Below, piece by piece: positions 17,420 to 53,086 of a stretch of 64,000 bases of DNA (its first letter is position 1; each line of letters begins with the position of its first letter). The stretch is from contig CBDCDC010000001.1 of the NCBI GenBank assembly GCA_965215195.1, positions 992,001 to 1,056,000 of the forward strand, written 5' to 3'. Made by a program: the position numbers and the translations under genes. The notes beneath the pieces are model-generated. The model did not search any database and was not told the DNA's origin. It saw only the letters and a list, made by a program, of their open reading frames with translations. Origin of the DNA: Candidatus Latescibacterota bacterium (lineage in GTDB: Bacteria > Latescibacterota > UBA2968 > UBA8231).

Positions 17420-17467
17420 GTATTTATGTATGATATGTACATTCTACAAACCTTGGGGATAGCGAGC

Positions 17468-19393: not shown

Positions 19394-19395
19394 GG

Positions 19396-21330: not shown

Positions 21331-21333
21331 AAG

Positions 21334-23934: not shown

Positions 23935-23944
23935 AGGAAACATA

Positions 23945-26557: not shown

Positions 26558-26584
26558 CTCTTTTTCTCCAGCGGAGGGAGTACT

Positions 26585-28546: not shown

Positions 28547-28556
28547 GGAAGATGCG

Positions 28557-30488: not shown

Positions 30489-30501
30489 AGGGCGAGATAC
30501 G

Positions 30502-37219: not shown

Positions 37220-37346
37220 CTTATTTGGTATCTTGTATCTTTGTGTCCTGTGCCCCAAAATACCCATATCCGCTGGAGGCCGCCAGTCAGTTGAGGGCGC
37301 GTCGGCCGGGAAAGGCGGACTAAGACGCGATAGAAAAGGGGACATT

Positions 37347-38540
37347 TTGCTTGGTTGTGACAAAGGTCCGCAACGGAGTTATGGGCTGGGCCTGCTGGGA
37401 GCCGGGTTGATGCTTGGTGGTTATTGGCTGATCTGGGGGTCGGTTGCTGGGTTTGTCAACTCCATTGACCACGGCGAGCAGATCTTTGGCGATTTTCGGC
37501 GCTTCTACTATCCGATGGGCGAGGTGCTTTTTGCCGAAAAGTGGCCGGTTCGGGGGTACTACTATACCTCGTTTTTTGCATTGGGGCTGAGCCTCATGGC
37601 ACTCTTGCCGCTAGCGGCGGCGACTGTTTTGTGGGGGCTTTTGCAGGTGGGGTGGGCGGCAGTGTTCTGCTACGTATCTGGCCGCTATGTGCTCGGACTC
37701 TCCGCTCGGGGCCTGCTGGTTTATTCGTTGTTGTTGCTGGCTTCCTTTCCCTTGTTGCACAATTTCAAGTGGGGGCAGGTCAGTGTGTTGGTGACGCTTG
37801 GCATTTCATCGGCGTTTGCGCTGCACCAGCAGGGTCGAAGCGCACTGGGAGGGATAGTCTTGGCGCTGGTTACCTGTATCAAGTACTATCCCGTCGCGTT
37901 TGTCGTTTATTTTTTTGTCCGCCGCGACGGGCGTTTCCTCGCAGCTTTCGGAATTGGCTTGTTGGGGTTTTACTGCCTGCTGCCAGCCGCGTTGTTGGGG
38001 CCTGTGGATTGGTGGTACTTCGAGCGAGCAACCGCACAATCGCTGCCGGAGACGGCACGGCTCCTCAGCGATTTTAATACCCAGTATTTTGTCCATGTAC
38101 TCAACCGCTGGGGGCAGCTGCTGGGGTATCGCCTTTTGGAATCAACGCTCAATGTGCTACGGCTCGCAGGGGTACTGGTCTTTTGTGCCAACAGCGTCGT
38201 GATGTGGTGGTTACACAAGCGAAAAATCACTCATAGGGTGCCCCTATCGGCCGCGGCGCTCTTTATCGCCTTGCCGTTTGTGGTGCAGACCTCGTGGCCC
38301 CACTACTTCGTCTTTTTGCCCTTTTGCCAAGCGTCCTTGTGGGTGGTGCTCAGTGACGCCCGGGTGCATTGGCTGTGGCGGGTGCCAGTTGTGTGCTCGG
38401 CGGTGCTGGCGAGTGGGTATTGCTTTGCCTTGTTCCCAAGCTGGCGGTTGTACAACGGGGTGGGTGCGTTGTGGCTAGCCGATGCGGCCTTGTTGTGCTC
38501 GCTCTACGGCTTGGTCCTACGGCGAAGGCCGCACGAATGA
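37347..38540 (+). CDS. GT87-like (DUF2029) GT-C membrane glycosyltransferase
   Basis: About 10 TM segments; DF..FYY, YYYTSF, HNFKWGQVS, IKYYP and SWPHYF motifs. Start uncertain (TTG 37347 after AGGGG). Confidence 0.72.
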   Translation: MLGCDKGPQRSYGLGLLGAGLMLGGYWLIWGSVAGFVNSIDHGEQIFGDFRRFYYPMGEVLFAEKWPVRGYYYTSFFALGLSLMALLPLAAATVLWGLLQVGWAAVFCYVSGRYVLGLSARGLLVYSLLLLASFPLLHNFKWGQVSVLVTLGISSAFALHQQGRSALGGIVLALVTCIKYYPVAFVVYFFVRRDGRFLAAFGIGLLGFYCLLPAALLGPVDWWYFERATAQSLPETARLLSDFNTQYFVHVLNRWGQLLGYRLLESTLNVLRLAGVLVFCANSVVMWWLHKRKITHRVPLSAAALFIALPFVVQTSWPHYFVFLPFCQASLWVVLSDARVHWLWRVPVVCSAVLASGYCFALFPSWRLYNGVGALWLADAALLCSLYGLVLRRRPHE

Positions 38541-40306
38541 CTCGCCTGTTGCTGCTACTGGTAGCCTATGCTGCTTGCGAGCCTGCTCCGCCCGTCCTTC
38601 CTGGTCCTTTTCGGGTGGCCCAAGACGCCGGACTTGACTTCGCTTATACTAGCGGCGCGGCGGGCGATTACTTTCTTATTGAGACCATGGGCGCTGGCGG
38701 GGCCTTTCTCGACTACGACCAAGATGGCTGGCTCGACATCTACTTGGTGGATGGGTTCGACTTGTCGCATCTGCGCGGCCAGTACCCACCGATCAACCTC
38801 AGCTACCGCGACGAGACCCACTACTGGGTGGAAAAGGACTACCGGCCCAGCCTGAGTTTCAAGGGCCTAGTTGACGAAAGTGCCTACCAAGTTGCCCCGG
38901 CCACCACTCATCCACCCAAGAGAAATAGACTCTACCGCAACGAGGGAGACGGGACGTTTTGCGAGGTAGAAGGTGCGGCCGGGGCGGACGATACCGGCTA
39001 TGGCATGGGCGTGGCTGTCGGCGACTTTGATGCGGATGGCGACCCAGACCTCTACGTCACCAACTACGGCCCCAATGTCCTTTATCGCAACGACGGGGGC
39101 GCGTTTGTCGATGTTACCGAAAAAGCCGGCGTGGGGGATCCGCGCTGGAGCACCAGTGCCCTGTTCTTCGACTGCGATAACGACGGTGACCTCGACCTTT
39201 ACGCGGCTAATTACCTCGACTTTTATCCGGCCAACAACCGCGTTTGCGGCGGCACCATTACCCCTAAGCGCCGACGCCAAGAGTTGCTGAAAATTCCCTT
39301 CGCACTACGCACCTATTGCAGCCCGCGCCGCTACAATGGCGTCCCGGATGTGCTCTACCGCAACGATGGCACTACCTTTGTCGATGTCACGGAACAGGCG
39401 GGGCTCTTCAACCGCTTTGGCAAGGGCTTGGGGGTGCTGGCCAGCGACTTTGATGCGGATGGCGATACGGATCTCTACGTGGCCAATGACGGGGTCCGCA
39501 ATGCGCTCTACCGCAACGACAGCGGCACCTTCGTCGACATCGCGCTCTCCGCTGGGGCCGCGTACAATGGCAACGGCCGAGCCGAGGCCGGCATGGGCGT
39601 GGCTGCTGGCGACGTTGACGCGGATGGCGACCCAGATATTTTTGTCACCAACTTCTCGCGCGAAAGCAATACGTTCTACCGCAACGACGGAGCCCACCGC
39701 TTCACCGATAGCGGAGCGGCTATCGGCCTCGCCGACCCGAGTCTGCGACCCTTGGGTTTTGGTACCCTGTTTTTCGACGCGGACAACGACGGTGACCTCG
39801 ATCTCTACGTCGCCAACGGGCATGTCATGGACCGGATTCAGCTCCTCGAAGAAGATCTCCGCTACGCCCAACCCGACCAGCTTTTCGCCAACAGTGGCGG
39901 CCAGTTCCACGACGTGTCAGCGGCGGCCGGCCCAGCCTTTTCTCGGGCCGCGGTCTCGCGTGGCGCGGCGTATGGCGACTACGACGCCGATGGCGACCTC
40001 GATTTGTTAGTCACTCACTCCAGCGGTCCAGTGGTCCTCTACCGCAACGACCTACCACCTCGTTCTCATTGGCTCTTGGTGGAAGGCCTAGTGACCGGTA
40101 CCCGCGTCCGCCTGCTGTGCGATGACCACCAGCAGACGCGGACCGTCTCTGCTGGCGGCAGCTACCTATCGGTCAACGATCCACGCCTCCACTTTGGCTT
40201 GGGGGGGTGCGCCCGCATTGAGCATCTCGAAATTCGCTGGCCGGATGGTGCGCGGACCGACCACTACGACTTGGCCGTCGACCAAGTACTCCGCAGCGGA
40301 CGATGA
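38537..40306 (+). CDS. CRTAC1-family lipoprotein (FG-GAP + ASPIC/UnbV)
   Basis: ATGA overlap with the upstream gene; lipobox YAAC; FG-GAP repeats; GGSYLSVNDPRLHFGLG...WPDG. Confidence 0.87.
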   Translation: MTRLLLLLVAYAACEPAPPVLPGPFRVAQDAGLDFAYTSGAAGDYFLIETMGAGGAFLDYDQDGWLDIYLVDGFDLSHLRGQYPPINLSYRDETHYWVEKDYRPSLSFKGLVDESAYQVAPATTHPPKRNRLYRNEGDGTFCEVEGAAGADDTGYGMGVAVGDFDADGDPDLYVTNYGPNVLYRNDGGAFVDVTEKAGVGDPRWSTSALFFDCDNDGDLDLYAANYLDFYPANNRVCGGTITPKRRRQELLKIPFALRTYCSPRRYNGVPDVLYRNDGTTFVDVTEQAGLFNRFGKGLGVLASDFDADGDTDLYVANDGVRNALYRNDSGTFVDIALSAGAAYNGNGRAEAGMGVAAGDVDADGDPDIFVTNFSRESNTFYRNDGAHRFTDSGAAIGLADPSLRPLGFGTLFFDADNDGDLDLYVANGHVMDRIQLLEEDLRYAQPDQLFANSGGQFHDVSAAAGPAFSRAAVSRGAAYGDYDADGDLDLLVTHSSGPVVLYRNDLPPRSHWLLVEGLVTGTRVRLLCDDHQQTRTVSAGGSYLSVNDPRLHFGLGGCARIEHLEIRWPDGARTDHYDLAVDQVLRSGR

Positions 40307-41913
40307 ACCAGCGCGAACGCCTGCTCTACGCCTTGCTCCTGCTGTTGGCTGGTGCCGTGCTCTGCTATGGCTGGAAACTGTATTGGTTTCTCACCGACGA
40401 TGCCTACATTTCCTTTCGCTACATAAGCAACTGGACCTTGGGTTACGGTCCGGTGTGGAACCCGCCCCCGTTTCGCCCAGTTGAGGGCTACACCAATTTT
40501 CTCTGGCTCGTCTTGCTCTATGGGGTCTGGCAGGTCTTAGGCGTCGCCCCTCCCGAGGCGGCCAATTACCTCACCCTGTGCTTTGCCCTATGCTCGCTGT
40601 GCATTGCTTCGCAGATGCTGCTGCGCGTGCCTTGGTCGCCCAAGCTGCGTCCCTATCGTTTAGCCTTCCTCGCCCTCTTGCTGCTCGCAGTGACCACCAA
40701 CCGCACTTTCTTGGCTTGGAGCAGCTCGGGCTTGGAAACAGCGCTGTTTGGTTGCTTGGTCCTCGCTTGGACCTATGCCTGCGCTTTTGTTGCTCCTAGC
40801 CACCAGAGATGGCCTTTAGCTATTTCCTCCTCGGTCACCGGTATCTATTTGACGCGCCCCGATGGCCTGCTTTTCCTCGGTGCCACTGCTGTCGCGCTCT
40901 TGTGGGCTTGGCGCACCGGCTGCTATCCCGCTCGGCGACTCGCCCATGCTCTGCCCTTGCTGGCCGCGCCGCTGCATCTGCTCTGGCGTCAGAGCTTCTA
41001 CGGCGAATGGCTGCCCAATACCTACTATGCCAAAGCCGTCGGGGCTTGGCCGGCCAGTGGCCTCCGCTACGCGCTCTCTTTTATTCTCGAATACGCCCTA
41101 TGGATGTGGGGACTGCTTTTGGTCTATGTGCTATGGAAAAAGAGGGGAGCACTCAGGCCATCTTGGAACGGGCTGCTCGCCGTGCTCGCACTTTGTGGAC
41201 ACGTTGCGTATTACACATTTTTCCACGGTGGCGACCACTTTGAGTACCGGATTTACGCGCACTTGGTGCCTTTGTGCTACCTCGCCTTTGCGTGGTGCCT
41301 AAACGCCGTGGGGATCCAACCGAAAAAAGCGCTTGCGGCCCTCGGCCTCTCGGTTGTCCTCTCCTGGCCGATTCCTTGGATCCATTGGTCCCAGACCCAC
41401 CACATCGCCAGCCGCGGCCAGACCTTACAACTCAAAGTGCCCGTGGCCCCTCACTTTTTCGCCCCGATCCGCTGGTACGCGGCTGCTTTTGACGATCTGC
41501 AATACTGGCTCATTGATCGTTTTGTCTGCATCCGCCACCAAGAACATAAAGCCAACGCGCAATTCCTTGCCGAGATGTTCCCTCCTCGTACTCAGGGTCA
41601 GTTTCTACCCGCGGTCGACTATCCGGTTTTTTTCTTTCCCGCCATCGGCATCCCGGCTTGGCACCTGCCTCACATCAACATCCTCGACGTTCACGGCCTC
41701 AACGACTACGTCATCGCCCGCACTTCCCCCGAGCCGACAGCCAAGCGCATAATGGCCCACGAGCGCACGCCGCCGGCTGGTTATGTAGAGTGCTTCCAGC
41801 CCAATGTCCGCCTCGTCGCCCCCGGGCAAGTTAAGGTGTTCCCCCGCGCACTCTCAGCCGACCAAATTGCCGACTGCGAGACCCGATGGGCGGCGTCTCT
41901 TACTGCCCGTTAG
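40303..41913 (+). CDS. GT-C membrane glycosyltransferase, AftB-like
   Basis: TDDAYISFRY...GPVWN...VEGYTNFLW, SSGLET, TRPDG and YGEWLPNTYYAK motifs; multiple TMs; C-terminal DVHGLND...AHE. Confidence 0.68.
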   Translation: MNQRERLLYALLLLLAGAVLCYGWKLYWFLTDDAYISFRYISNWTLGYGPVWNPPPFRPVEGYTNFLWLVLLYGVWQVLGVAPPEAANYLTLCFALCSLCIASQMLLRVPWSPKLRPYRLAFLALLLLAVTTNRTFLAWSSSGLETALFGCLVLAWTYACAFVAPSHQRWPLAISSSVTGIYLTRPDGLLFLGATAVALLWAWRTGCYPARRLAHALPLLAAPLHLLWRQSFYGEWLPNTYYAKAVGAWPASGLRYALSFILEYALWMWGLLLVYVLWKKRGALRPSWNGLLAVLALCGHVAYYTFFHGGDHFEYRIYAHLVPLCYLAFAWCLNAVGIQPKKALAALGLSVVLSWPIPWIHWSQTHHIASRGQTLQLKVPVAPHFFAPIRWYAAAFDDLQYWLIDRFVCIRHQEHKANAQFLAEMFPPRTQGQFLPAVDYPVFFFPAIGIPAWHLPHINILDVHGLNDYVIARTSPEPTAKRIMAHERTPPAGYVECFQPNVRLVAPGQVKVFPRALSADQIADCETRWAASLTAR

Positions 41914-41930: not shown

Positions 41931-42812
41931 TCATTCTCCTTCAAACAACCCCTCCTCCACCGGCATCAGCTCGAAGTCGCCGATAAATTCTCCGCTACAG
42001 TACATTTTCGGGTGTTGCGTCAGGGCCCAAAAGGCATCAAAGGTGTCTTCTTTGGTGTCCGCGTCGAGGAAGGACCAGCCGAGGCCGATGATCGCGCCTT
42101 CTTGCAGCGAGTGGCGGCGGCTCAGATGCGGCCCTTCCGGGTGCAGGTCGTCGAAGGGCGTTAGATAGCATTCGTAGAGGACGGTGCCCGGGGAGAGGTG
42201 CTCAACCGCGCCCTGCCACCCCACGGCCGAATAGCGTTCCTCTTTGGTCCACAGGGCTTTGCCCCACAGCCAGTGCCAGTAGTGGCCGTTGAGCGGCGGG
42301 ATGTAGAGGTGGTAGTTTTGGGTATAGGCGCTGCGGTGGCGCAATTCCACGTGGGGCGCTTCTGTTTGATCGGCGAAGTGAATGACCTTGTCGCCGGCGT
42401 GGTCGGCGTCGATGACGATTTCCCAGATGTCCGCGCCGTGGACGTGGGCACCGGTCAGGCGGCTGTGGGGGGTGTCGAGCGAGTCGGTGATGTCCTTGTG
42501 GAAGCGCCAGATGTCGTCGTACACCTCGGCCATGAAGTACAGGCGGTTGTGGGTTTTGTTCCAGCCGACAGCCGAGCGGCGCACGTGGAAATCCGTGGTG
42601 TCGGGCGCACCGCGCTCGCGGTGCAGCTCCGCGTATTGGGTGTAGTCGTAGAAGTACTCGGCGGGCACTTTGGCCCAGTCGGCGGCATGGCCGTCCATGT
42701 GCGGGACGTGGTCGTCGGGGAACTGGAAGACCTTGAAGGTGGTGTCTGCGGGGTAGTGGGCGAGGGCGGGCAGGGCCAGCAACAAAACGCCGACAGCAGC
42801 AATTAGATACAT
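41931..42812 (-). CDS. Secreted CBM9/DOMON-like protein (paralog of 16428)
   Basis: Signal peptide ...ALA-HYP; PHMDGHAADW, VGWN..HNRLYF, ADIWEIVIDADH, EGAIIGLGWSFLDAD; AGGAG RBS before ATG 42812. Confidence 0.7.
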   Translation of the reverse strand: MYLIAAVGVLLLALPALAHYPADTTFKVFQFPDDHVPHMDGHAADWAKVPAEYFYDYTQYAELHRERGAPDTTDFHVRRSAVGWNKTHNRLYFMAEVYDDIWRFHKDITDSLDTPHSRLTGAHVHGADIWEIVIDADHAGDKVIHFADQTEAPHVELRHRSAYTQNYHLYIPPLNGHYWHWLWGKALWTKEERYSAVGWQGAVEHLSPGTVLYECYLTPFDDLHPEGPHLSRRHSLQEGAIIGLGWSFLDADTKEDTFDAFWALTQHPKMYCSGEFIGDFELMPVEEGLFEGE

Positions 42813-42959
42813 GATGATAGGGCTCCTTTTTGGACGGCAAGGTAGGCTAGGGTATAGGGTGCTCCTACCTTTTGGGTTGACGGCAAAGTAGGCCAAAGAA
42901 GACATTGGCTCAAGGGGGGTGGGGATGGTTATATTGCAAAACCAGAAAGGAGAGTCTGC

Positions 42960-43964
42960 ATGCGCCTACTACTAATTTGGGTCGTCGCGCTCGTTGCCGC
43001 CGGGTGCGGCGAATCGGGCGACGAGCCCATGGAGAAAAGAATCGTCTGGTACGCCCTGATGGTTCACCCCTATGTCGAAGAGGTGCAAAAAGGGGTGATC
43101 GGCTATGAGCGCGACAGCGGGATCAAGATCAAGCGCCAGATCGGCCAAAACTGGACCCAAGACAATGAAAACGCCAACGTTGAGCCGCTGGCCGCCCAGG
43201 GCTACAAAGGCTTCTCGCTCTACCCGGCCGACGCCAGTGCCGCCAATGGACTGTACGAGGAATTGGTGCAAAACGGGGCCTATGTCGTCAGCTATGGAGC
43301 GCCGACGACCCTGCCGACGCCGGCTTCGTTTTGCGTGGCGACCGACGTCCGGCAGGCGGCACTGGAGGCGACCGAGGCGCTGATCGGCTTTATGGGCGGC
43401 AAGGGCCATATCCTCAACGTGCTGGAGCTGGTCGAAGACCCCAACACCATTCTGCGCAAAGAAGGCGTCGAGGCGGCGGTGGCCCAATACCCGGAGGTCC
43501 AGATCGTGCAAGAAATCGCCGGCATGGAGTCGATTGAGACTAGCACCGCCAAAATCCAAGACGCGCTCTCGGCGCGGATCGAGGAGATCGACGGCGTGAT
43601 TTGCACGGGGTACACCCCGACCGTGGCCGCGGCGACCATTCTGTCCGAGTGGAACCAAGCCCCGGGTAACAAGCGCATCCACTTCGTGGGCATTGACACG
43701 GACCCAGTGGTGCTCAACGCGATCCGCCGAGGGGCCATCGACGCGACCGTCTCGCAAAACCCCTACGGCCACGGCTACATCACGTGCGCCCTGTTGAGCT
43801 ATTTGCTCGATGGCTGGCAGGCCAATCCCGACCACTACTTCGTCAACTCGGGCACGGTGCTGGTGACCAAGGACAACGTCGATACCTTTGAGGGCGAAGT
43901 CAGGGCCATCACCGCGCGGATTATGGGCGAGTTGGAGACCAAATACCTCAGCCCGCCCCGCTGA
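42960..43964 (+). CDS. Sugar ABC transporter substrate-binding lipoprotein (RbsB-like)
   Basis: Lipobox AAGC; periplasmic-binding fold motifs FVGID...AIRRGAIDATVSQNPYGHGY. Confidence 0.88.
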   Translation: MRLLLIWVVALVAAGCGESGDEPMEKRIVWYALMVHPYVEEVQKGVIGYERDSGIKIKRQIGQNWTQDNENANVEPLAAQGYKGFSLYPADASAANGLYEELVQNGAYVVSYGAPTTLPTPASFCVATDVRQAALEATEALIGFMGGKGHILNVLELVEDPNTILRKEGVEAAVAQYPEVQIVQEIAGMESIETSTAKIQDALSARIEEIDGVICTGYTPTVAAATILSEWNQAPGNKRIHFVGIDTDPVVLNAIRRGAIDATVSQNPYGHGYITCALLSYLLDGWQANPDHYFVNSGTVLVTKDNVDTFEGEVRAITARIMGELETKYLSPPR

Positions 43965-43967
43965 TTC

Positions 43968-45476
43968 GTGCTCGAACTGCAATCCATTAGCAAGCACTTC
44001 CCGGGCGTCCAAGCCCTAGACGACGTCTCGCTCTCGTTCCAGCCGGGCCAGATCCACGCCCTAGTCGGGGAAAACGGCGCTGGCAAGAGCACTCTGCTCA
44101 AAATTGTCACCGGAATATACCAGCCCGACGCCGGGCAGATGCGCTTCAACGGTGCGCCGCTGCGCGTCCGCAACTGTCGCGACTGCCTCAACCGCGGCAT
44201 TGGCTTGGTCCACCAGGAAATCCAGGTAGTAGCCGAGGCCAGCGTGGCCGAGAACATCATGCTCGACAAGTTAGACGCCTTCAGCCGGTGGGGTCGCCTA
44301 GACTGGCCGCGGCTCGACGACCAAGCGCGGGCTGCGATGGCGCGGGTTGGGCTGGACATGGACCCGCAAGCACCCATTGGCGATTTAAGCGCGGCGCACA
44401 AGCAGCTCGTGCAGATCGCTCGGGTGCTGTCGGCCGAGGCGCGGGTCCTGCTATTAGACGAGCCAACGTCGTCGCTTACTGAGCACGAAGCGGCCCGGCT
44501 CTTTGGCATTTTGCGCCAGTTGCAGGAGGCGGGCGTGGCCATCGTCTTTGTCTCGCACAAGTTCGACGAGGTCTATCAGATCGCCGACCAAGTCAGCGTG
44601 TTGCGGGACGGGCGACACGTGGGCACGAGGGAATTGGCCGGGCTGCCGCGCGCCGAACTGATCGAGATGATGATCGGCCGGCCGGCCGCGACAGCTTCGT
44701 TTGGCGCGCCGGCCGTGGACCGGGCGCGGGCGGTGCTCAGGGTTGAGGGGCTGTACGCGCCGGGCCGAGCGCACGGAGTGAGCTTTTCGCTCTACGCCGG
44801 CGAGATTTTGGGGTTGTACGGCTTGGTGGGGGCCGGGCGCACCGAGTTGGCGCGGCTGTTGGTTGGAGCCGAGCAGGCCGAGCGCGGTGCCGTCTATATC
44901 CACGGAGAAAAAGCGCGGATCGGCTCGGTGGCCGACAGCCTGTACAAATACCGCATGGGCTACGTAACCGAAAACCGCAAAGAAGAGGGCCTGCTGCTGG
45001 ATTCAGCCGTGCGCACCAATCTCGGCATTGCGATATGGGAGCGGATCGTCGGCAAGTTCACCCGCCGGATCGACGACCGGGCCGAGACTAAAGCCGCGCA
45101 GGCCATGGTCGCGGCGCTGGATATCCGCACTACCGGGCTAGAGCAGGAGGTAGCTCACCTCAGCGGTGGCAATCAGCAGAAAGTTAGCTTGGGCAAGTGG
45201 CTGGCGGCCGAGTGCGATATCCTGATCGTGGATGAGCCGACCGTCGGGGTGGATATCCAAGCCAAGGCACAGATCCACCGCTTGCTCTGGGACTTGGCGG
45301 CCAAAGAAGGCAAGGCCATCATTTTGATTTCGTCGGACATGCCGGAGATCATCGGCTTGGCTGGGCGGATCCTCGTCTTTAAGGAAAAGCAGATCGTCCA
45401 CGAGATCGCCGAGATCCACGAGCGGGGGTTGAGCTACGACGCGATAAGCCGCCGCATCGGCCGCCATCTGAACTGA
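43968..45476 (+). CDS. Sugar ABC transporter ATP-binding protein (RbsA/MglA-like)
   Basis: GENGAGKST Walker A, LLLDEPT, second domain LSGGNQQK / IVDEPTVGVD. Confidence 0.95.
   Translation: MLELQSISKHFPGVQALDDVSLSFQPGQIHALVGENGAGKSTLLKIVTGIYQPDAGQMRFNGAPLRVRNCRDCLNRGIGLVHQEIQVVAEASVAENIMLDKLDAFSRWGRLDWPRLDDQARAAMARVGLDMDPQAPIGDLSAAHKQLVQIARVLSAEARVLLLDEPTSSLTEHEAARLFGILRQLQEAGVAIVFVSHKFDEVYQIADQVSVLRDGRHVGTRELAGLPRAELIEMMIGRPAATASFGAPAVDRARAVLRVEGLYAPGRAHGVSFSLYAGEILGLYGLVGAGRTELARLLVGAEQAERGAVYIHGEKARIGSVADSLYKYRMGYVTENRKEEGLLLDSAVRTNLGIAIWERIVGKFTRRIDDRAETKAAQAMVAALDIRTTGLEQEVAHLSGGNQQKVSLGKWLAAECDILIVDEPTVGVDIQAKAQIHRLLWDLAAKEGKAIILISSDMPEIIGLAGRILVFKEKQIVHEIAEIHERGLSYDAISRRIGRHLN
45455..45476 (+). 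repeat. Left 22-bp direct repeat
   Basis: CATCGGCCGCCATCTGAACTGA, the last 22 nt of the ABC ATPase gene; identical to 52103-52124. Confidence 0.95.
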
Positions 45477-45610
45477 GCCAATGGGAAGTTCTCTGGGGCG
45501 AGCAAACATCCTCGAAAACCAGAGAAGCCGTCTTGACCGGCGAATCCCTTTTCTGTTTTATTCCAACCCCCAAAACAGATAGATATAGATATAGAATTGA
45601 GGATGTGATT

Positions 45611-48600
45611 ATGCCCGACGAAAAGGTACAGAGTACGGAAAACCGCCGAGATACCCAGTGGAGTCGTTTGATTGAGGACATGCATCAGTGGCCTTGGGAT
45701 GCTCCAGAATGGGAAAGCGTTCAAGTTCGAGGATTCATAGACCAAGTCCAGCTCATAGCCGAGCAGAAGTGCCAAGAACGAGAAGAGGCGGGGCGGCTCC
45801 AAATCCAGCAGGTCCTCGATCAATTGCGGGAGGAGCACGAGGCGACTCTCGTCAATTACTTTCTTTGCTCAGGCCTAGCCACGTGGGAAGCGGCTAGCTG
45901 TCCCATTGACCGAATTGACGAGCAGCTAAAGAAGACGCAAGACCTACTGACGCAACTGAATCAACGCCAAATCATCTACCAACAGATTCCACAAAATTAC
46001 TTGGAAGGCCGCAAGAAATGGGCGGAATTGGAGTCCGTAGAGCGTCGTATCCGCAGCTTGGTGGAGCAACTCGACCAAGATTTATCCGCCGCCCTCCCCG
46101 AGTCCCCTCCTTTGGATGGTGTTGCCAAAGAGGATGATCCGCCGCCCCCGCAGCCGCCTAGCCCTGTCCAAGGCCCTTTGGATGATCTCCCTGCTTCCGA
46201 GCAAGGCCCAAAAGCCGAAGAAGACGCGGACTCATCCGAAAAGGTGTTGCAACAGGAAGCCAGTCTTAAAGAAGAAGGCGAGCTAGCACCCCCACCTGCA
46301 CCTCAGTTCCCCGATGAGAAGCCCCTGTCTTTGCGCCCGGCTCAAGAGGTAGCAGTTGTGTTGCAAGAAGACCAATCGGATGAACACTGGGAATCGCTGG
46401 GATGGAGCTTGTTAGCTGAAGATGACTTGGCCGGGGCCTACTGGCTGGCTCGTTCTCTGGAAGCAGCGGGTCGCGACGTAGCGATCGCCCCGGAATTGCT
46501 CGCCGTGCTTCAGGGTTCGCGCTGGTTGGAGAACGATACCGACAGCTTGGTCTCCGATATCCGGCAGATTGTTTCGGAGTGGGAGCGCCAAGGTACTACT
46601 TCTGAGCGGCGGCTGAGTTTGGCCGCGGCTTTGCGCCCCAGCTTGGTTGCCCAGCACACCGGTTTAGTTAGCTGGCTTCCGCAAAGGGAAGAAGTCGATT
46701 CCGTGCTGGGTGCGCTAGCCGAGGCTATTCGCACTTTTGCGTCAGCGGGTCACCCCTTACGGGCCGAAGACATGCAGTCCGTAGAAGGCAGGGAAACTCA
46801 CGAGGAGCAAATTAGAGAGATAGGTGAGCAGGCTCGTCTCTTCTTGGAAAACAATCGAGCTAACAAGAAGTTGAAGGTTAAGCGAGCCACCGATGTGTTG
46901 CATCGCTTGGTGCTTCAAGAAGGGGATTTACACCTTCTTCTTACTCCGATAAGCGAAAATAAGGCCGACCAAGTCGCCCAAGTCCAGCAGCGCATGAAAG
47001 ATTTCGGGGAGCGCAGGCAGATTAAACGTTGCCTCCACCAGATTGACCAAGACCTAGCTGGGGCCAAAAAACGCAAAATCACAGGAGATCCCATCAATCA
47101 GTTGGTGCGGAGTGTCGAAGAAGCGGTCGGTCTGGCTCGACGGTGGTGTTCCCTGATAGCTCAGGAAAAGACTGAACACCAGAAGGGCGACTGGCGGGGC
47201 GAGCGCGTGGAAGCCCTACGCTGTCTAGTACAAGATGTCCTCCCCGACATCAATGACGAACTCAAGCGAATGCAGGCGCCGGAGCAACCGCAAGAAGAAG
47301 TCGCTTTGGGCCGTGTTCTACAGCGATCCATAGGCCAAGTAGCAGGTATGCTCGGCCTAGAGGAGCAAGCCGGTATTGAAGTCCCTGAAACATGGATGAA
47401 GCGCGGAAGCAGTTCACTCGAAGGGGCTTTATCGCGCCGCCTGTTGTATCTCCCCGAAATCTCTCTCGACGAAGATGGCTTGCCTGAAAAGGATCAAGAG
47501 GCTGCTATTGCTGGGTATTTGCGTCAGTCTTTGGCTGAAAAACGCTTCCTTCCTATGGCTTGGGATATGCGGATTGAAGGACAGGATTTTCGTTTTACCG
47601 ATGTATTGCGGGATGTATTGGAGAATGATGCGGATCGCCAACGGCTTGAAGAGCGAAACGACGAGGAGCTCAAAAGTGCTCAAGCGGTGCTAAAGGACAC
47701 TGTCAACAAGGTGGAAGGTGCTATTGAAAAGGGACTCGTGGACGGCCTGATTGCAGAAGAAGAACGCGCCGCTCTCAACGCTGAATTGCCGAGAGCTGAA
47801 GACGCTTTGTACTTCCCACCCTTGTTGCAGCAATTAAGTGATATTGAAAAGCGATTGAACCAAAGGCTCGAAGAACGTTTACAAGAGTTGGAGGTTCAAT
47901 GGAAGGAAATGAGGCAGGGCTTGGAGCAGAGTATCCAAGCCGACCTAACAACCGCGGCGGCATCTATTGAAAGTGCTTTTGTGCACCGCGATACCAGGGT
48001 TATAGAAGAAAGCCTAGCCCACTTGCGCGAAATTCGCGACGGTGAGCGCGAATGGCAGGACGAGTGGTTTATCCGGCCCGACAAGCCCGACATCTTCAAG
48101 AAGTTCCAAGAGGCTTGTCCGCGCATTGAAGAAACACTTAGCAGTTTGCGTAATGTCGCACAACTAGCCGAGGTGATTGAACAAGGCCAAACTTGGGCAG
48201 ACATGGAGTTTGGCGAATTGCCCCAAGAATGCCGGGAGGAGGCAGCTAAAGCTCTGCACTCTTGGCACCAGCTAAAACGCGGACAACAAAATAAAAACCA
48301 AAGGCATATCCAAGTTCTTTTGCAGTACTTGGGTTTCCGCCCGTTGGAAGGAAAACCGGCCGTGAGCGTAGGCGTGAAAAAGCGCGATCAAGATTGGCTC
48401 TACTGCCAAGTGGATGCTTCGGCCAGTGGCCTAGCACGACCCATCCCGCAGTTGGGATCGCAAGCCAGCGGCTGCTACAATGTGGTGTGTTTTTGGACAC
48501 GACCTAGGGCCGCCTCTATTGAAGCGTTTTTGCGCGAATTGGGATTGGATACTAAGACGGTCATTATTTTTTTTCTTGGACGATTGACTGATCGACAGCG

Positions 48601-50833
48601 ATGCGACATAGCTGCACAGGCCAGAAAACGGGAATTAGCGCTGGTCGTGCTAGATGAAATTTTGCTGGTATTTTTGGCTAGGCTTGACGATACTCGCCTG
48701 CCAACCTTCCTGCGTTGTAGCCTGCCCTATGCTGCCCTCAATCCCTATACGCCGTTCCAACCGGGAAATGTACCACCCGAAATGTACTACGGCCGCGATA
48801 AGATGATCCGTCAGCTAAGGGAGGGGTCTTGCATAGTGTTCGGCGGGAGACAGTTGGGCAAATCTTCCCTGTTGCGCCAAGTGGAACGCGAATTTCACCA
48901 ACCTGAGCGCGAGCAATACGCTTGGGTTGAAGACATCAAGCTCGTAGGAGATGTACTTACAGGCGAGCCGCCGGCTCGGCTGTGGATCAAGTTGCGCGAT
49001 GGCTTTAAGAATCATTCGCTAATAAGAGCCACAGAGGCGAACCAGCCTGAAAGAATCAGACAATACATCGAGAAGGCGATGGCGGAGTCTCCTCAACGGC
49101 GAGTTCTGGTTCTATTTGACGAAGCCGATCACTTTCTCTCCGCTGATGCCAAGAACGGCTTCCAAGTGGTTGAGGGCTTGCGGAACTTGATGTCGAATAC
49201 CCAAGGGTACTTCATGGTAGTTTTTGCTGGTCTGCACGATGTCCAGCGTTTTAACAATATCGCCAACCAGCCTCTGGCCCACTTTGGTCGAACTGTGCTG
49301 GTAGGGCCGCTCGAGGCTGGGCCAGCTCAGCAGTTGGTGCAAGAACCGCTAGAGATACTGGGCTATCGGTTCGCCGATGAGACCACGGCACTCAAAGTTC
49401 TGTCCTACACTAATTATCACCCGGGTTTGATACAGTTCTTCTGCCACGAACTCGTCAATCGGCTGCAAGACAAAAGGTATTTATCGGGACCGCCCTATAA
49501 AGTGCTAGCAGACGATGTGGAGGCGGTATATCGCATCCCTAGAGTGCGGCAGGTCATTCGCGAACGACTGGACTGGACTTTGGCCCTAGATGCTCGATAC
49601 CAGTGCATCGCTTGGGCCATGATCTATGCCCAGAAAGAGACACGCGATAGCTATGTCCGTTCATTTAGCGCGGCCGAACTTCTCGAACTGGTGCAAGATT
49701 GGTGGTCTCAAGGCTTTGAGAAATGCGATAGCCAAATTTTCGAGGTATTGCTAGAAGAAATGGTTGGTCTGGGTATATTGATACGCAATTTAGATCAATA
49801 TCTGCTCCGCAGTCCCAATCTGGTTCGCCTCATGGGTACCGTAGAGGATATAGAGTACCGTTTGCTAGAGCTAGCTGAAAAATTTCCGCCGTCCCAACGT
49901 CGCCCTGAAAGTCAGCACGTGTTGCTAGATTCCCAGAGCCGCCTATATAGTCCCTTGACGTTGTCGCAGGAAAGCGATTTGCAAAAAAGTGGGGAGTCGG
50001 GTGTGACGTTAGTCTTTGGCACTCCAGTATTGGGGCAGGATGTGTTGGACCGGGCCTTAAAGCGCATAGGCGGGCGTAAGATTCCCAACCAAGAATTGAC
50101 TAAAGTGGAACAAACCTGTAGGTGGTTGGATGACTACGCTCGGCAACCCCGAGGGGCCGACCAGTCCTTGGCGTATGGTCAACTCAAGGGCACAGGAGGT
50201 AACATGGCCCAGTGCGTCTGGCGTGTATGGAATATGTGTGAAACCGTTAAGAAAGGACGAAGACGGCCTCTAAAAGTGGTTTTTATTCTTAATCCCGCGG
50301 CCACTCGGTCTTGGCTAAAGGTGGCTGCGGACCAGCGCACAGATCGAGAAAATAAGGCGGGTCTCGTTTATCTGCATCGTTGGGACGAAGTGGGCATTCA
50401 GCAGCGGTTGAGCCAAGCCGAGAAGCTGGATTCGCCCGAAGTCTGCCAGAAAGTCTTGGAAGCTACAGGGGGATGGTCCGTCTTGCTGGACGCTCTTTTG
50501 CAGCAGTGTGGCGACCATACCGATCCGCGACCTTATGCAGATACCTTGATCGAGGAGATGGGGTCTGAGTTGTTGCATCAGATTGGATTGGATGAGCGGG
50601 AGTCGCGCGTATTGCGGAAGTTGGCGGCACTCGGCACCGTCCAAGATACGGATGAAGATTTAGAGACGTTGATAAGTTTTATTAATGAAGACATTCCCAC
50701 AGATGACGATTCTCTTGCGCTAGATGACTGTAGGCTGACGGTAGAGTTTTTGCACCGACTGCAATGCCTTGAAAAGAAGAACGGGGAATACTGCGTGGAG
50801 TCCGTCTTGAGTCGAGTAATTAACCCTCTATGA
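45611..50833 (+). CDS. Large (1740 aa) STAND/AAA-like P-loop ATPase with long helical N-terminus
   Basis: NPY...YYGR pre-motif, Walker A GGRQLGKSS (nt ~48842), Walker B VLFDEAD, VVFAGLH, YTNYHPGLIQ; GAGG RBS before ATG 45611. Confidence 0.82.
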   Translation: MPDEKVQSTENRRDTQWSRLIEDMHQWPWDAPEWESVQVRGFIDQVQLIAEQKCQEREEAGRLQIQQVLDQLREEHEATLVNYFLCSGLATWEAASCPIDRIDEQLKKTQDLLTQLNQRQIIYQQIPQNYLEGRKKWAELESVERRIRSLVEQLDQDLSAALPESPPLDGVAKEDDPPPPQPPSPVQGPLDDLPASEQGPKAEEDADSSEKVLQQEASLKEEGELAPPPAPQFPDEKPLSLRPAQEVAVVLQEDQSDEHWESLGWSLLAEDDLAGAYWLARSLEAAGRDVAIAPELLAVLQGSRWLENDTDSLVSDIRQIVSEWERQGTTSERRLSLAAALRPSLVAQHTGLVSWLPQREEVDSVLGALAEAIRTFASAGHPLRAEDMQSVEGRETHEEQIREIGEQARLFLENNRANKKLKVKRATDVLHRLVLQEGDLHLLLTPISENKADQVAQVQQRMKDFGERRQIKRCLHQIDQDLAGAKKRKITGDPINQLVRSVEEAVGLARRWCSLIAQEKTEHQKGDWRGERVEALRCLVQDVLPDINDELKRMQAPEQPQEEVALGRVLQRSIGQVAGMLGLEEQAGIEVPETWMKRGSSSLEGALSRRLLYLPEISLDEDGLPEKDQEAAIAGYLRQSLAEKRFLPMAWDMRIEGQDFRFTDVLRDVLENDADRQRLEERNDEELKSAQAVLKDTVNKVEGAIEKGLVDGLIAEEERAALNAELPRAEDALYFPPLLQQLSDIEKRLNQRLEERLQELEVQWKEMRQGLEQSIQADLTTAAASIESAFVHRDTRVIEESLAHLREIRDGEREWQDEWFIRPDKPDIFKKFQEACPRIEETLSSLRNVAQLAEVIEQGQTWADMEFGELPQECREEAAKALHSWHQLKRGQQNKNQRHIQVLLQYLGFRPLEGKPAVSVGVKKRDQDWLYCQVDASASGLARPIPQLGSQASGCYNVVCFWTRPRAASIEAFLRELGLDTKTVIIFFLGRLTDRQRCDIAAQARKRELALVVLDEILLVFLARLDDTRLPTFLRCSLPYAALNPYTPFQPGNVPPEMYYGRDKMIRQLREGSCIVFGGRQLGKSSLLRQVEREFHQPEREQYAWVEDIKLVGDVLTGEPPARLWIKLRDGFKNHSLIRATEANQPERIRQYIEKAMAESPQRRVLVLFDEADHFLSADAKNGFQVVEGLRNLMSNTQGYFMVVFAGLHDVQRFNNIANQPLAHFGRTVLVGPLEAGPAQQLVQEPLEILGYRFADETTALKVLSYTNYHPGLIQFFCHELVNRLQDKRYLSGPPYKVLADDVEAVYRIPRVRQVIRERLDWTLALDARYQCIAWAMIYAQKETRDSYVRSFSAAELLELVQDWWSQGFEKCDSQIFEVLLEEMVGLGILIRNLDQYLLRSPNLVRLMGTVEDIEYRLLELAEKFPPSQRRPESQHVLLDSQSRLYSPLTLSQESDLQKSGESGVTLVFGTPVLGQDVLDRALKRIGGRKIPNQELTKVEQTCRWLDDYARQPRGADQSLAYGQLKGTGGNMAQCVWRVWNMCETVKKGRRRPLKVVFILNPAATRSWLKVAADQRTDRENKAGLVYLHRWDEVGIQQRLSQAEKLDSPEVCQKVLEATGGWSVLLDALLQQCGDHTDPRPYADTLIEEMGSELLHQIGLDERESRVLRKLAALGTVQDTDEDLETLISFINEDIPTDDDSLALDDCRLTVEFLHRLQCLEKKNGEYCVESVLSRVINPL

Positions 50834-52101
50834 GCTTGGGACTGACCACTTCCCTCATGCAGATGCCCACGGTCCGACAATTGCTCGGCCTTATGCTGCG
50901 CGACCTGCGCACTGGCCGCAGTGTGTTGGGCTTGCTACCCGAAGGAGTTGACGCCAGTCTGCTGCGGTCGGTTTTATGGGATGGTCTGGAGCACTTGCAT
51001 CTGCATATTCAAGAGGTCGCCATAGCGAATTTAGACGCCCAAATGCCAGTAGCTGCTTTGGGCCAAGCGATGGGAGTGGATTGGGGTGCTCCCACTGCGG
51101 GGCGCACGGTAAGGAATTTCTTAAAACAAGCGGATTTGCCTGAAGTATTGTTCCTCGAGGGCTTTGATGAACTGGCTGAAGAAGGCGGAGTTCAGTGGTT
51201 GCGATTTATGGAGAGGTGGGCGCGAGAGTGCCAAGGTGGGGACTATGCTGACACGAGTCCTCCGGCACTATGTCTGCTGGCTGAAGCAGCAAAAGTGCCT
51301 TACCCACTTTCCTCAACAAATGTCTTGTTGTCCATTCACGTCTGGCGGGGTATCCCCACTACTGCGGAAGTGCGGTTGTTGTGCCAAGTAGTCGGCGAGC
51401 AGGATACTACTCCTTTAAGCCGTTGGAAAGAGCATACGATTCCATCTATTGCGGGTTCTGACTTGGAGTTGGCCGATTATTTGTGGGAAGAAGACTATTG
51501 CGATGGAGAGGAATTGGTCGCTGTACTGCAGGCTTTTGCTGAGAGGCGCGGCTGGAATCAGGACGAGTTGCATAGACTTCCTTGGGAGGCGACGTATTGG
51601 ACAGATGACTGGCCGTTGTCGCCTCATTTATACAGGGCTTGGGCCCGGGGGCTAGTGCATTGGACTCCAGAGCACGGTGTAGAACGCCACAGCGCGGTCT
51701 TGGCTCTACTGGATCAACAAGAAGCCTTAGATCATCGCCTGTGGCGCGGTCAGGCCGAATTTCTCTTGGCCCAAACTAACCAAATACGACTGGCTTTATG
51801 CGCTCACCTCAACGAAGCCTATGGACCGGCTTGGCCCTATAAGTGGCAAAAACCGGAGACAGATATAGAATGTCAGGAGGTACAAAGTACGCCCTTTGCC
51901 TGTCAGTGGGGGCATCTGAAATTTTTGCTGCAAAACTGCGCGGAACTGCATAGAGAACGACGGTGGTATTCCCTAGTGGAATGCTCGTGGCGCATTCGCA
52001 CGGCATTGGCTCACTATCGCTCTATATCTCTGAAAGAATACGAAAAGTTCTGCTGGGAACTAAAGCGCAGTCATCAGGGCGGCCTGAGGATCGTTTGGTG
52101 A
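50830..52101 (+). CDS. Hypothetical protein (423 aa), partner of the large ATPase; possibly a degenerate P-loop fold
   Basis: ATGA overlap with the ATPase gene; GRSVLGLLP and VLFLEGFD segments; Trp-rich; no catalytic motif recognised. Confidence 0.75.
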   Translation: MSLGLTTSLMQMPTVRQLLGLMLRDLRTGRSVLGLLPEGVDASLLRSVLWDGLEHLHLHIQEVAIANLDAQMPVAALGQAMGVDWGAPTAGRTVRNFLKQADLPEVLFLEGFDELAEEGGVQWLRFMERWARECQGGDYADTSPPALCLLAEAAKVPYPLSSTNVLLSIHVWRGIPTTAEVRLLCQVVGEQDTTPLSRWKEHTIPSIAGSDLELADYLWEEDYCDGEELVAVLQAFAERRGWNQDELHRLPWEATYWTDDWPLSPHLYRAWARGLVHWTPEHGVERHSAVLALLDQQEALDHRLWRGQAEFLLAQTNQIRLALCAHLNEAYGPAWPYKWQKPETDIECQEVQSTPFACQWGHLKFLLQNCAELHRERRWYSLVECSWRIRTALAHYRSISLKEYEKFCWELKRSHQGGLRIVW

Positions 52102-52102
52102 T

Positions 52103-52124
52103 CATCGGCCGCCATCTGAACTGA
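52103..52124 (+). repeat. Right 22-bp direct repeat
   Basis: CATCGGCCGCCATCTGAACTGA, between the stop at 52101 and the permease ATG at 52127. Confidence 0.95.
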
Positions 52125-52126
52125 CT

Positions 52127-53086
52127 ATGGAACGCCTACGCAAACTCATGCGGCACAACGACGCCGGAATCGCCTTGTCCGCGGGGTTGCTGTTTGTGGG
52201 ATGTGCGCTCAGCTCGGAGAGCTTTCTGTCGGCGTACAACCTCTTCAATATCTCGCGGGTCGTTGCGTTTTCGGTGTTGGTGGCGCTGGCGCAGGCGGTG
52301 GTGCTGGTCGCCGGGGGGATGAACCTATCCGTGGGGGCCATCGGCGGCTTGGCGACCATCACCACTGGATACTGCATCCAAGTGTTGGGCCTGCCGGGGT
52401 GGTTAGCGGCGCTGGTGGCACTGGGGATCGGGGGCGCGGCCGGGTGGGTCAACGGGGTCGTCATCACGCGGTTGCAGATCAATTCCTTTATCGCCACGCT
52501 GGCTACGCTTTTTGTCTTTACAGGGCTGGTGCATGGGTTTTCCGAAGGCTACGCCTACACGGACATCCCGCGGGAATTCACGTTTTTGGGGCGGCAGAAG
52601 TTTTTGGGGCTGTCGAATTTGTTCTGGACGATGGGGCTGGTGCTGCTGGCGACTCACTACGCATTCCGGCACACGGTCTTTGGGCGGCGGCTGTTGGCGA
52701 CCGGGGGGAATCAGGAGGCCGCTAGGTTGGCCGGGATCCATACCGAGCGGATGATTTTGCTATCGCACGTGCTGTCGGGCGGCGTGGGTGCGCTGGCTGC
52801 GGTGTTGTGGGTGTCGCGGATGGGCTCGGCGCAACCGGCGACGGGCAAGGATTGGCTGATAACCAGCTTTGCGGTGGCTATTGTCGGCGGGACTGGGCTG
52901 GCCGGCGGGCGCATCTCGGCACTGGGCCTGCTGCTGGGGGCGGTTATCATCGTCCTCATCAAGAACGGCTTGGTGATGCTGGAGGCCAATGTGTACTACG
53001 AGCAGGCGTTTCTGGGGTCGATCATCCTGTTGGCCGTGGTAGTGAGTCGGGTGCGGGAGCTGTACGGTGGGCGGGGCGGAGCGTGA
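52127..53086 (+). CDS. Sugar ABC transporter permease (RbsC-like)
   Basis: GGMNLSVG, INSFIATLA, FGRRLLATGGNQEAARLAGI and AVAIVGGTGLAGG motifs. Confidence 0.93.
   Translation: MERLRKLMRHNDAGIALSAGLLFVGCALSSESFLSAYNLFNISRVVAFSVLVALAQAVVLVAGGMNLSVGAIGGLATITTGYCIQVLGLPGWLAALVALGIGGAAGWVNGVVITRLQINSFIATLATLFVFTGLVHGFSEGYAYTDIPREFTFLGRQKFLGLSNLFWTMGLVLLATHYAFRHTVFGRRLLATGGNQEAARLAGIHTERMILLSHVLSGGVGALAAVLWVSRMGSAQPATGKDWLITSFAVAIVGGTGLAGGRISALGLLLGAVIIVLIKNGLVMLEANVYYEQAFLGSIILLAVVVSRVRELYGGRGGA

Follow-up and report, generated by a model that had tools for sequence, protein, structure and literature searches.

A Repeat-Flanked Cassette Encoding a Giant STAND-Like ATPase and a Pseudo-STAND Partner: A Candidate Mobile Conflict System in Candidatus Latescibacterota

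A Two-Gene Cassette Within a Sugar Transporter Operon

The DNA analyzed in this study is a 64-kb stretch of a Candidatus Latescibacterota genome (G000), referred to as the window, and its subject is a pair of adjoining genes encoding a giant STAND-like ATPase and a smaller partner protein. The pair lies in a sugar ATP-binding cassette (ABC) transporter operon and is probably a mobile conflict system. Both open reading frames (ORFs) are on the forward strand, as are the other features of the cassette and its flanks. The giant ATPase gene extends from the ATG at 45611 to the stop codon at 50833 and encodes 1740 amino acids (aa; P0001). The partner gene extends from the ATG at 50830 to the stop codon at 52101 and encodes 423 aa (P0002). 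The two ORFs are joined by an ATGA overlap of the kind associated with translational coupling. The original prediction, made from the DNA letters, had described two coupled ORFs of these lengths, and their coordinates were confirmed.

The pair occupies a 6.6-kb cassette with a 21-bp direct repeat at each end, inserted between the ATPase and permease genes of the operon. The left repeat (45456–45476) is the last 21 nt of the double ABC ATPase gene, including its stop codon, and the same letters recur exactly in the right repeat (52104–52124), 2 nt before the ATG of the permease. The host flanks consist of a periplasmic binding protein gene (42960–43964; Pfam Peripla_BP_4, 1.1e-40), the double ABC ATPase gene (43968–45476; ABC_tran, 1.6e-56) and the permease gene (52127–53086; BPD_transp_2, 1.8e-36). 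The ABC ATPase and the permease were 93–94% and 96–97% identical, respectively, to their orthologues in the same genus. The G+C content was 0.52–0.55 over 46–52 kb, compared to about 0.60 in both flanks. A non-coding leader of 134 bp (45477–45610), which is conserved in the related genome G005, precedes the giant gene.

No gene other than the pair was present in the cassette, and Pfam scans of its proteins revealed no recombinase. The Pfam, PADLOC and NCBIfam scans of the pair contained no transposase, integrase or HUH family either. A consensus scan identified no promoter in the leader, and the promoter and terminator scan of the cassette ends gave nothing exceeding shuffled sequences. Rfam had no matches in the whole window. 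The giant gene was present as a single copy in the genome.

The Giant Protein Has an Intact STAND-Type NTPase Module

The giant protein was aligned with 41 homologues of 34–78% identity, and an AlphaFold2 (AF2) model of aa 880–1740 was obtained with a pLDDT of 83. Conservation peaked in aa 900–1440 and was lowest in aa 1–240 and 1440–1740. The conserved center is a STAND/ORC-type module (aa 1043–1410; 48737–49840), in which the model had the tripartite layout of nucleotide-binding domain (NBD), helical lid and winged helix. Walker A (GGRQLGKS, aa 1078–1085; 48842–48865) and Walker B (LFDEAD, aa 1168–1173; 49112–49129), both originally predicted to be intact, were invariant in the 41 homologues, with D1170, E1171 and D1173 fixed in the latter. 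The motifs SYTNxHxGLIQ and SPNLxR were also invariant, as were the candidate arginine fingers R1191 and R1213. The fold matches extended through the winged-helix domain (WHD) of Cdc6 and of NLRs, and those to ORC, NLR and archaeal ATPase_2 proteins scored at least as high as those to MuB and TnsC. The fold-match lists of the giant protein and the partner were both dominated by AAA+ domains. Among the Pfam families, AAA_22 matched the giant protein with 27.0 bits, exactly at the cut-off, and AAA_16 with 25.4 bits against a cut-off of 32.6, while PF20703 (nSTAND1) was precomputed for some distant homologues only. As fold and invariant motifs agreed, the giant protein is a STAND-like NTPase with an intact NTPase module, in accordance with its earlier description.

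The alpha/beta segment and the winged-helix region that had been expected around the P-loop were both present in the AF2 model, the former preceding the P-loop. This small alpha/beta domain (aa 919–1014; 48365–48652; model residues 40–135) contains the invariant residues P946, Q947, G949 and Y956 and possibly has a restriction-endonuclease-like fold. The C-terminal region (aa 1436–1740; 49916–50830) was modeled as a second alpha/beta module with a helical end. The segment TLVFGTPVLG (aa 1466–1475; 50006–50035), previously proposed as a second degenerate P-loop, formed a strand-loop-helix in this module and lacked GK[ST]. The best Foldseek matches of the model were two-ring AAA+ proteins aligned over 650–720 columns, with TM-scores of only 0.16–0.27, and the second degenerate AAA-like module is hence plausible at most. 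This region was variable, with 0.19–0.40 identity in distant relatives, and included an invariant TGGW (aa 1619–1622).

The N-terminal part comprises a variable module (aa 1 to ~155) and a Pro/acidic linker (aa ~156–240), which together span 45611–46330 and showed 0.10–0.29 identity to distant relatives. In this linker, which the original prediction had noted, the 85 residues of aa 156–240 include 19 P, 11 E and 9 D. In one homologue of 3003 aa (P0131), aa 1–231 were replaced by an unrelated N-terminus of 1480 aa. The following body (aa 241–900; 46331–48310) was conserved in a full-length alignment with homologues of other phyla and is a candidate sensor or scaffold. There was no Pfam match in aa 241–900 and no usable Atlas match to aa 245–900.

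The Partner Joins a Pseudo-STAND Module to a HEPN-Like Domain

The N-terminal domain of the partner (aa 1–297; 50830–51720) has a STAND/AAA+ fold with eroded nucleotide-binding motifs, and its fold matches included plant NLRs and NAIP/NLRC4. The P-loop position was occupied by LLPEGVD (aa 35–41), and GK[ST] was absent from this position in all 25 relatives, indicating that the partner is a pseudo-NTPase. Comparison of the profiles by hhalign revealed no similarity between the partner and the giant protein, and a sequence paralogy of this domain with the C-terminal module of the latter was therefore rejected.

The C-terminal domain (aa ~288–423; 51691–52098) is helical, with helices at 297–331, 360–394 and 401–416 in the AF2 model, and contains the motifs HRLWRGQ (51733–51753) and RTALAH (51997–52014). 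The latter is an Rx4H motif, which reads IRNxLAHYRP in most relatives. R390 and H395 were invariant in the 25 relatives and in 17 C-terminal domains, two of which are fused elsewhere, and R390, N391, A394 and H395 were kept in at least 90% of 41 distant partners of 24–40% identity. An Atlas lead connected the partner to a "Swt1-like HEPN" cluster. Moreover, hhalign against 30 bona fide Swt1-type HEPN domains of Latescibacterota placed the motifs in register (P of 8e-4 and 6.5e-4), with a score that none of 100 column shuffles reached in either run. The C-terminal domain is thus a probable HEPN-type RNase domain, judged from its motifs and profile, and the conservation of R390 and H395 fits catalysis better than a loss of activity. 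These results revised two earlier statements, namely that the 423-aa protein had no recognizable active site and that no nuclease effector was present, since a pseudo-STAND module is fused here to a HEPN-like Rx4H domain.

The Rx4H domain was also found outside such pairs. In Roseiflexaceae (L066 217–10456), it was fused to a 616-aa protein, adjoined by a 1426-aa STAND+TPR protein and an 837-aa NurA-domain protein; in Spirochaetia (L067 3826–5732), it was fused to a 254-aa protein, with an M78 (IrrE-like) peptidase encoded next in line. Because it is joined to other N-termini with both motifs intact, this domain appears to be a portable module. The window's genome had three HEPN_Swt1 matches, none of them at the pair; one is at G000:C2:1799129–1799470 (L070).

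The Cassette Site Is Variably Occupied Within the Genus

The site was surveyed in 31 genomes of the same genus, in 28 of which the permease was located. Seventeen of these 28 loci had an empty site, where the ATPase stop codon lies about 5 bp before the permease start and the 21-mer is present in one copy. The pair stood directly upstream of the permease in five loci (G000, G005, G001, G007, and G002), and the remaining six contained other sequences. The pairs of G005 and G001 were likewise bounded by the 21-bp repeat, and the copy of G002 was broken, its partner gene being interrupted by an IS1-like transposase gene. The presence of the pair was patchy, as it was found in 5 of 24 other genomes of the genus, plus G045 and G046 from a separate species scan.

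Public metagenome contigs reflected both states of the site. In run X5, contigs of a relative with 90–95% likeness joined 45454 to 52103 at a depth of about 110, with 22 letters at the junction fitting both sides, and the cassette itself had a depth of 2–10. Run X6, from another study, spanned the cassette and both junctions at 95–99% likeness.

Several related arrangements were observed at the operon. In G012 (L044 14087–18370), the same 21-bp repeat (14087–14107 and 18350–18370) bounded a different cargo of 4.2 kb, consisting of a DDE_5 transposase gene and three ORFs (264, 230, and 382 aa) without a Pfam match. In four of the six loci with other sequences (G018, G046, G011 and G013), a stand-alone STAND NTPase gene of 395–443 aa was located between the ABC ATPase and the permease (L011 16556–17743; L046 1539–2759 on the reverse strand; L045 17129–18460; L047 922–2157). 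These four matched AAA_16 at about 1e-15, as well as ATPase_2 and nSTAND1, and no second copy of the 21-mer was found around them. A 395-aa ORF of apparently similar kind stood beside the pair in G007 (L014 2511–3698). In G018 and G046, the pair was upstream of the ATPase gene rather than between ATPase and permease. In G045 (L054 3750–11973), it directly followed the binding-protein gene; the ABC ATPase gene was missing, a single 21-mer lay about 650 bp past the partner, and the permease gene was elsewhere in the genome, which suggests a rearrangement. The stand-alone STAND genes, the cargo of G012 and the shifted positions of the pair indicate that the intergenic sites of the ABC operon are a hotspot for such cargo.

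To compare the pair with its flanks, synonymous (dS) and non-synonymous (dN) divergences were estimated against two genomes. Relative to G005, the flanks had a dS of 0.26–0.29 and a dN/dS of 0.06–0.10, compared to a dS of 0.41 for the giant gene and 0.37 for the partner. Relative to G001, the flank values were 0.25–0.28 (dS) and 0.08–0.15 (dN/dS), and the dS reached 0.69 and 0.73 for the giant gene and the partner, respectively. The dN/dS of the pair was about 0.3 in both comparisons, indicating that both genes are functional and under purifying selection. Since the dS of the pair exceeded that of the flanks, the pair is older than the divergence of the flanks and did not co-diverge with them; it was therefore independently acquired or replaced by recombination.

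The Pair Is Distributed Across Phyla

A HMMER scan with the partner against 1.84 billion representatives returned 1090 matches at E ≤ 1e-3 and 386 at E ≤ 1e-30. Separately, 60 close clusters of the partner were identified. The giant protein had at least 459 homologues, many of them full-length at 35–40% identity with 1700–2100 aa. A cross-phylum scan with one genome per species yielded 20 related loci, whose record titles named Candidatus Latescibacterota, Binatia, Anaerolineales, Caldilineaceae, Chloroflexia, Armatimonadota, Blastocatellia and Entotheonella, so that the pair is spread over at least six phylum-level groups. At 18 of these loci, the partner was directly preceded by the giant gene, with both in the same orientation. 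Fourteen of these 18 paired copies were apparently intact and four were disrupted, by a frameshift (L052), a frame change (L055), a 1.2-kb insertion (L063) and many frameshifts (L065). Some of these disruptions may be long-read assembly errors. The partners of L053 and L055 were intact in tblastn searches. Outside the genus, the pair was found in unrelated surroundings without the 21-bp repeat.

The core of the giant protein (aa ~830–1660) also recurred at 24–33% identity in giant plasmid proteins that differ from it in their N-termini and downstream partners. In Bradyrhizobium elkanii (plasmid locus L098 1488–12443), the gene for a 3100-aa "RNaseH domain-containing protein" precedes that for a 549-aa AAA ATPase, and in Brasilonema (plasmid locus L099 4638–14897), the gene for a 2289-aa protein precedes that for a 1094-aa helicase. 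The 3100-aa and 2289-aa proteins were 28–29% identical to the giant protein core.

To characterize the surroundings, 81 neighboring ORFs at 12 loci with distinct surroundings were scanned with PADLOC and Pfam, without a control set. The strong PADLOC matches among them were BrxL, PglZ, BrxA, HerA and SIR2, together with MTase_I, Specificity_I, MTase_II and REase_II. In L057 (Armatimonadota), the gene order was PglZ-BrxL-[pair]-SIR2-HerA, and in L050 the pair was followed by a type I restriction-modification (R-M) methylase subunit. The neighborhood is suggestive of a defense association. A 986-aa neighbor in L050 that had been considered as HsdR was histidine-kinase-like instead, and a 516-aa neighbor in L013 had no match in the PDB.

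Comparison With Known Systems

The closest precedent is the mobile two-gene counter-invader "nSTAND2" operon predicted by Kaur, Iyer, Burroughs and Aravind (eLife 2021; PMC8195603). It combines an active STAND protein with an inactive STAND fused to HEPN or GT4, so that both products carry STAND modules; a toroidal hetero-multimer was predicted, and the inactive modules were proposed as nucleic-acid receptors. The pair shares this logic: two adjacent mobile genes both encode STAND modules, one of which has eroded NTP-binding motifs and is joined to an effector-type domain, here HEPN-like, a call of moderate strength. Furthermore, hhalign of the giant NTPase with a bona fide nSTAND2 protein gave an E-value of 4e-7 and spanned the NPY..FFGR lead-in and both Walker motifs. 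However, Pfam PF20702 had no match at E ≤ 1 in the window's genome, and in five further genomes that carry the pair it did not match there either. In contrast to nSTAND2, the active protein has 1740 aa, of which about 1000 at the N-terminal side are unassigned, and includes a further module at the C-terminus; hhalign showed no similarity of the partner profile to the nSTAND2 protein, and no arginine was invariant in the inactive module. In view of the shared logic and the failed PF20702 membership, we class the pair as a divergent and much larger variant that would work like the nSTAND2 operon. It should be noted that PMC13449251 assigns PF20702 and PF20703 opposite to the Pfam release used here. 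A bona fide nSTAND2 locus was seen in a Blastocatellia genome (G169, L101 1673–8554), where proteins of 1402 and 662 aa adjoin; both aligned with the giant NTPase, and both apparently retain the Walker A lysine.

In Avs proteins, a single chain combines effector, NTPase and TPR-like sensor. The STAND NTPase core is common to Avs/AVAST and the pair, as the fold matches of both proteins included Avs3 (8dgc) and those of the partner also EfAvs5 (9jap), and the logic of sensor, switch and effector is the same. Unlike in Avs, the probable effector of the pair is on a second chain with a dead STAND module of its own, no PADLOC Avs model matched, and no repeat sensor was found in the pair by Pfam. 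The accessible text of a recent account of Avs families (PMC13581612; Nature 2026) describes no two-gene form. The archaeal ATPases Paby2304 and Sso1545 (PDB 2qen and 2fna; Pfam ATPase_2) showed 14–16% identity, but have only ~350 aa, without the long N- or C-terminal regions and without a HEPN partner.

With respect to the HEPN-like domain, the Swt1-like HEPN clade of Anantharaman et al. (2013; PMC3710099), which includes fusions to AAA+ (Ava_2192) or to STAND+TPR, is in register with the partner at RNxxAH. As described there, it likewise combines HEPN with AAA+/STAND NTPases in conflict contexts. HEPN is C-terminal to the inactive NTPase in the pair, whereas it is N-terminal in the Ava_2192-like proteins of Latescibacterota (~1115 aa). 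Of the 168 genomes of Latescibacterota that were searched, 49 encoded proteins of ~1110–1135 aa with an N-terminal Swt1-type HEPN.

Paired sensor and helper NLRs are known from animals (NAIP-NLRC4) and plants (sensor NLR-NRC). Similar to these, the pair consists of two NLR-type chains, one a presumed sensor and the other with an effector domain. In sequence, however, only the STAND fold is common to them; the partner has no P-loop, and co-assembly is conjectural.

The system had been considered uncharacterized. No experimental study of such a pair was found in the literature searched, supplementary tables aside, and PADLOC, Pfam and the PDB gave no assignment to a named system. The logic itself has a precedent in the operon predicted in PMC8195603.

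Other Genes in the Window

Outside the operon, seven consecutive large paralogous genes with C-terminal FlgD_ig and/or CHU_C (type IX secretion sorting) domains were located at 17426–33105 on the forward strand. These were followed by genes for FG-GAP/ASPIC proteins, an FGE-sulfatase gene and a GT87 glycosyltransferase gene (33108–34694, 35534–37363 on the reverse strand, and 38369–40306). Two ORFs of 536 aa (40303–41913, forward) and 324 aa (41931–42905, reverse) lie just upstream of the ABC operon and had no Pfam match at E ≤ 0.001. The 536-aa ORF is conserved in G001 with 91% identity.

Discussion

The repeat-flanked cassette, the empty sites and the patchy presence of the pair indicate that it is mobile and accessory. 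From its sequence features, we consider it probable that the pair is a horizontally mobile two-gene STAND conflict system, most likely an abortive-infection-type defense against phages or other mobile elements. A role in defense, as originally predicted, remains the best inference, although on the side of enrichment the defense neighbors were tied to the locus in just 2 of the 12 contexts (L057 and L050).

Besides this low proportion, a number of results weigh against a defense function or its HEPN effector. Many neighbors of the pair were housekeeping genes according to Pfam (81 ORFs), and six neighboring proteins in L055, L061 and L062, considered as BREX, HerA or R-M genes, had no PADLOC match at 1e-10. 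PADLOC-DB v2.0.0, which includes Avs and bNACHT, matched the giant protein with none of its families at E ≤ 1 and the partner at chance level only (E of 0.065–0.069). NCBIfam, PHROGs and PDB sequences gave nothing meaningful for either protein, and no tblastn match of the partner was found in phage and plasmid records. The giant protein had no TPR, WD40 or LRR sensor match in Pfam at E ≤ 1, which agrees with the absence of a TPR/WD sensor noted originally. The partner is very uniform in architecture, the best 150 of the 1090 representatives all having 290–460 aa, and no effector swapping was seen beside the giant gene. The HEPN assignment itself is affected by several observations: Pfam HEPN_Swt1 matched only 5 of 25 members, weakly and below threshold (best E of 0.028); the family model had no match at this locus at 1e-5; the hhalign probability was just 24–28%; and T replaces the N of RNxxAH in the window's partner, which belongs to a subgroup of 8 of the 25 relatives. 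When the alignment of the C-terminal domain was searched as a profile against the PDB, it returned chance matches only (ribosomal and fluorescent proteins, E of 0.2–1.7), and this domain had no fold match of its own, as the lists were filled by the N-domain. Finally, no invariant arginine was present in the partner N-domain (25 and 41 sequences), which weakens the idea of a hetero-ring.

The weak profile-level support and the T-for-N subgroup would also be expected if the HEPN-like domain were a non-catalytic domain for RNA binding or sensing, a role that has been suggested for some inactive HEPN modules, with the effector located in the giant protein, either in the small alpha/beta domain or in the N-terminal module. 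The latter is swappable, as effectors usually are, and inactive STAND modules were proposed as nucleic-acid receptors in PMC8195603. We regard this explanation as unlikely, since the family-wide conservation of R390 and H395 speaks for catalysis, the alpha/beta domain of the window lacks the acidic residues of the family consensus in our reading of the alignment, and Pfam revealed no enzyme motif in the first 155 aa. The pair could instead be a selfish addiction or stabilization module of the toxin-antitoxin type, or cargo that serves the mobile cassette itself. A repeat-flanked cassette without other genes, the frequent disruption of its copies, the coupling of a HEPN-type toxin to a large regulator and the transposase-bearing cargo at the same repeat-flanked site in G012 would all suit such a role. 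To our knowledge, however, 6.5 kb in two genes far exceeds known addiction modules. Moreover, the STAND architecture and the BREX and SIR2-HerA flanks in L057 fit immunity, and the dN/dS of ~0.3 reflects continued selection on both genes, so that an addiction module is quite improbable.

Two further explanations concern the site rather than an effector. The precise 21-bp repeats at the same target in three species, the missing co-divergence of cassette and flanks in dS and the lack of a recombinase gene inside the cassette could be accounted for if the cassette were a new autonomous mobile element, in which a MuB/TnsC-like AAA+ module, perhaps with the alpha/beta domain, drives site-specific insertion at the 3′ terminus of the ABC ATPase gene. 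But neither the motifs nor the families detected included a transposase, an integrase or an HUH protein, the pair occurs outside the genus in unrelated contexts without the repeat, and MuB and TnsC do not outscore the ORC, NLR and ATPase_2 fold matches. As the transposase-bearing cargo of G012 uses the same site, the site can be served by other means, and we hold an autonomous element to be very unlikely. The least probable explanation, to which we give hardly any credence, is that the pair serves the sugar transporter in a housekeeping or regulatory role. The pair does lie inside the same operon in several species of the genus, and no terminator-like site was found between partner and permease in the scan. 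This role is largely refuted by the 17 of 28 same-genus loci in which the operon lacks the pair, and its unrelated neighbors in other phyla, its lower G+C content and the repeat-flanked cassette also speak against it.

If the pair is a STAND conflict system, the giant protein would act as sensor and switch. Its long non-enzymatic regions (aa 1–900 and/or 1436–1740) would recognize an invader-derived molecule, upon which the ATP-bound NTPase module would oligomerize. The partner may then dock via its pseudo-STAND module, comparable to the association of helper with sensor NLRs or to that of inactive subunits with ORC or clamp loaders. Docking would bring the HEPN-like domains together as composite active RNase sites, and the resulting RNA cleavage would arrest the infected cell. 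In a bolder form, which we advance as a doubtful but possible interpretation, the pair would be a bacterial "paired NLR": a giant sensor STAND with an undescribed sensor fold (aa 241–900) would detect an invader and, once activated, recruit a P-loop-less helper STAND that serves solely to deliver the HEPN RNase. The unit would be mobile as a cassette that lacks a recombinase and is bounded by 21-bp att-like repeats at the 3′ terminus of a conserved gene.

Immunity in all domains of life relies centrally on STAND/NLR proteins, and the bacterial examples that have been characterized are mostly single-chain. The present pair splits the switch and the probable effector over two STAND-type chains, one of which is dead, an arrangement predicted once by comparative genomics. 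The family is large (at least 459 giant homologues and 1090 partner representatives) and outside current defense-finding models, and about 1000 aa of the giant protein have no assigned fold. The natural occurrence of occupied and empty sites offers a clean case for studying the movement of defense cassettes. If the paired reading is true, it would reveal a sensor-helper division of labor in prokaryotic STAND immunity and a new route for the exchange of defense cassettes.

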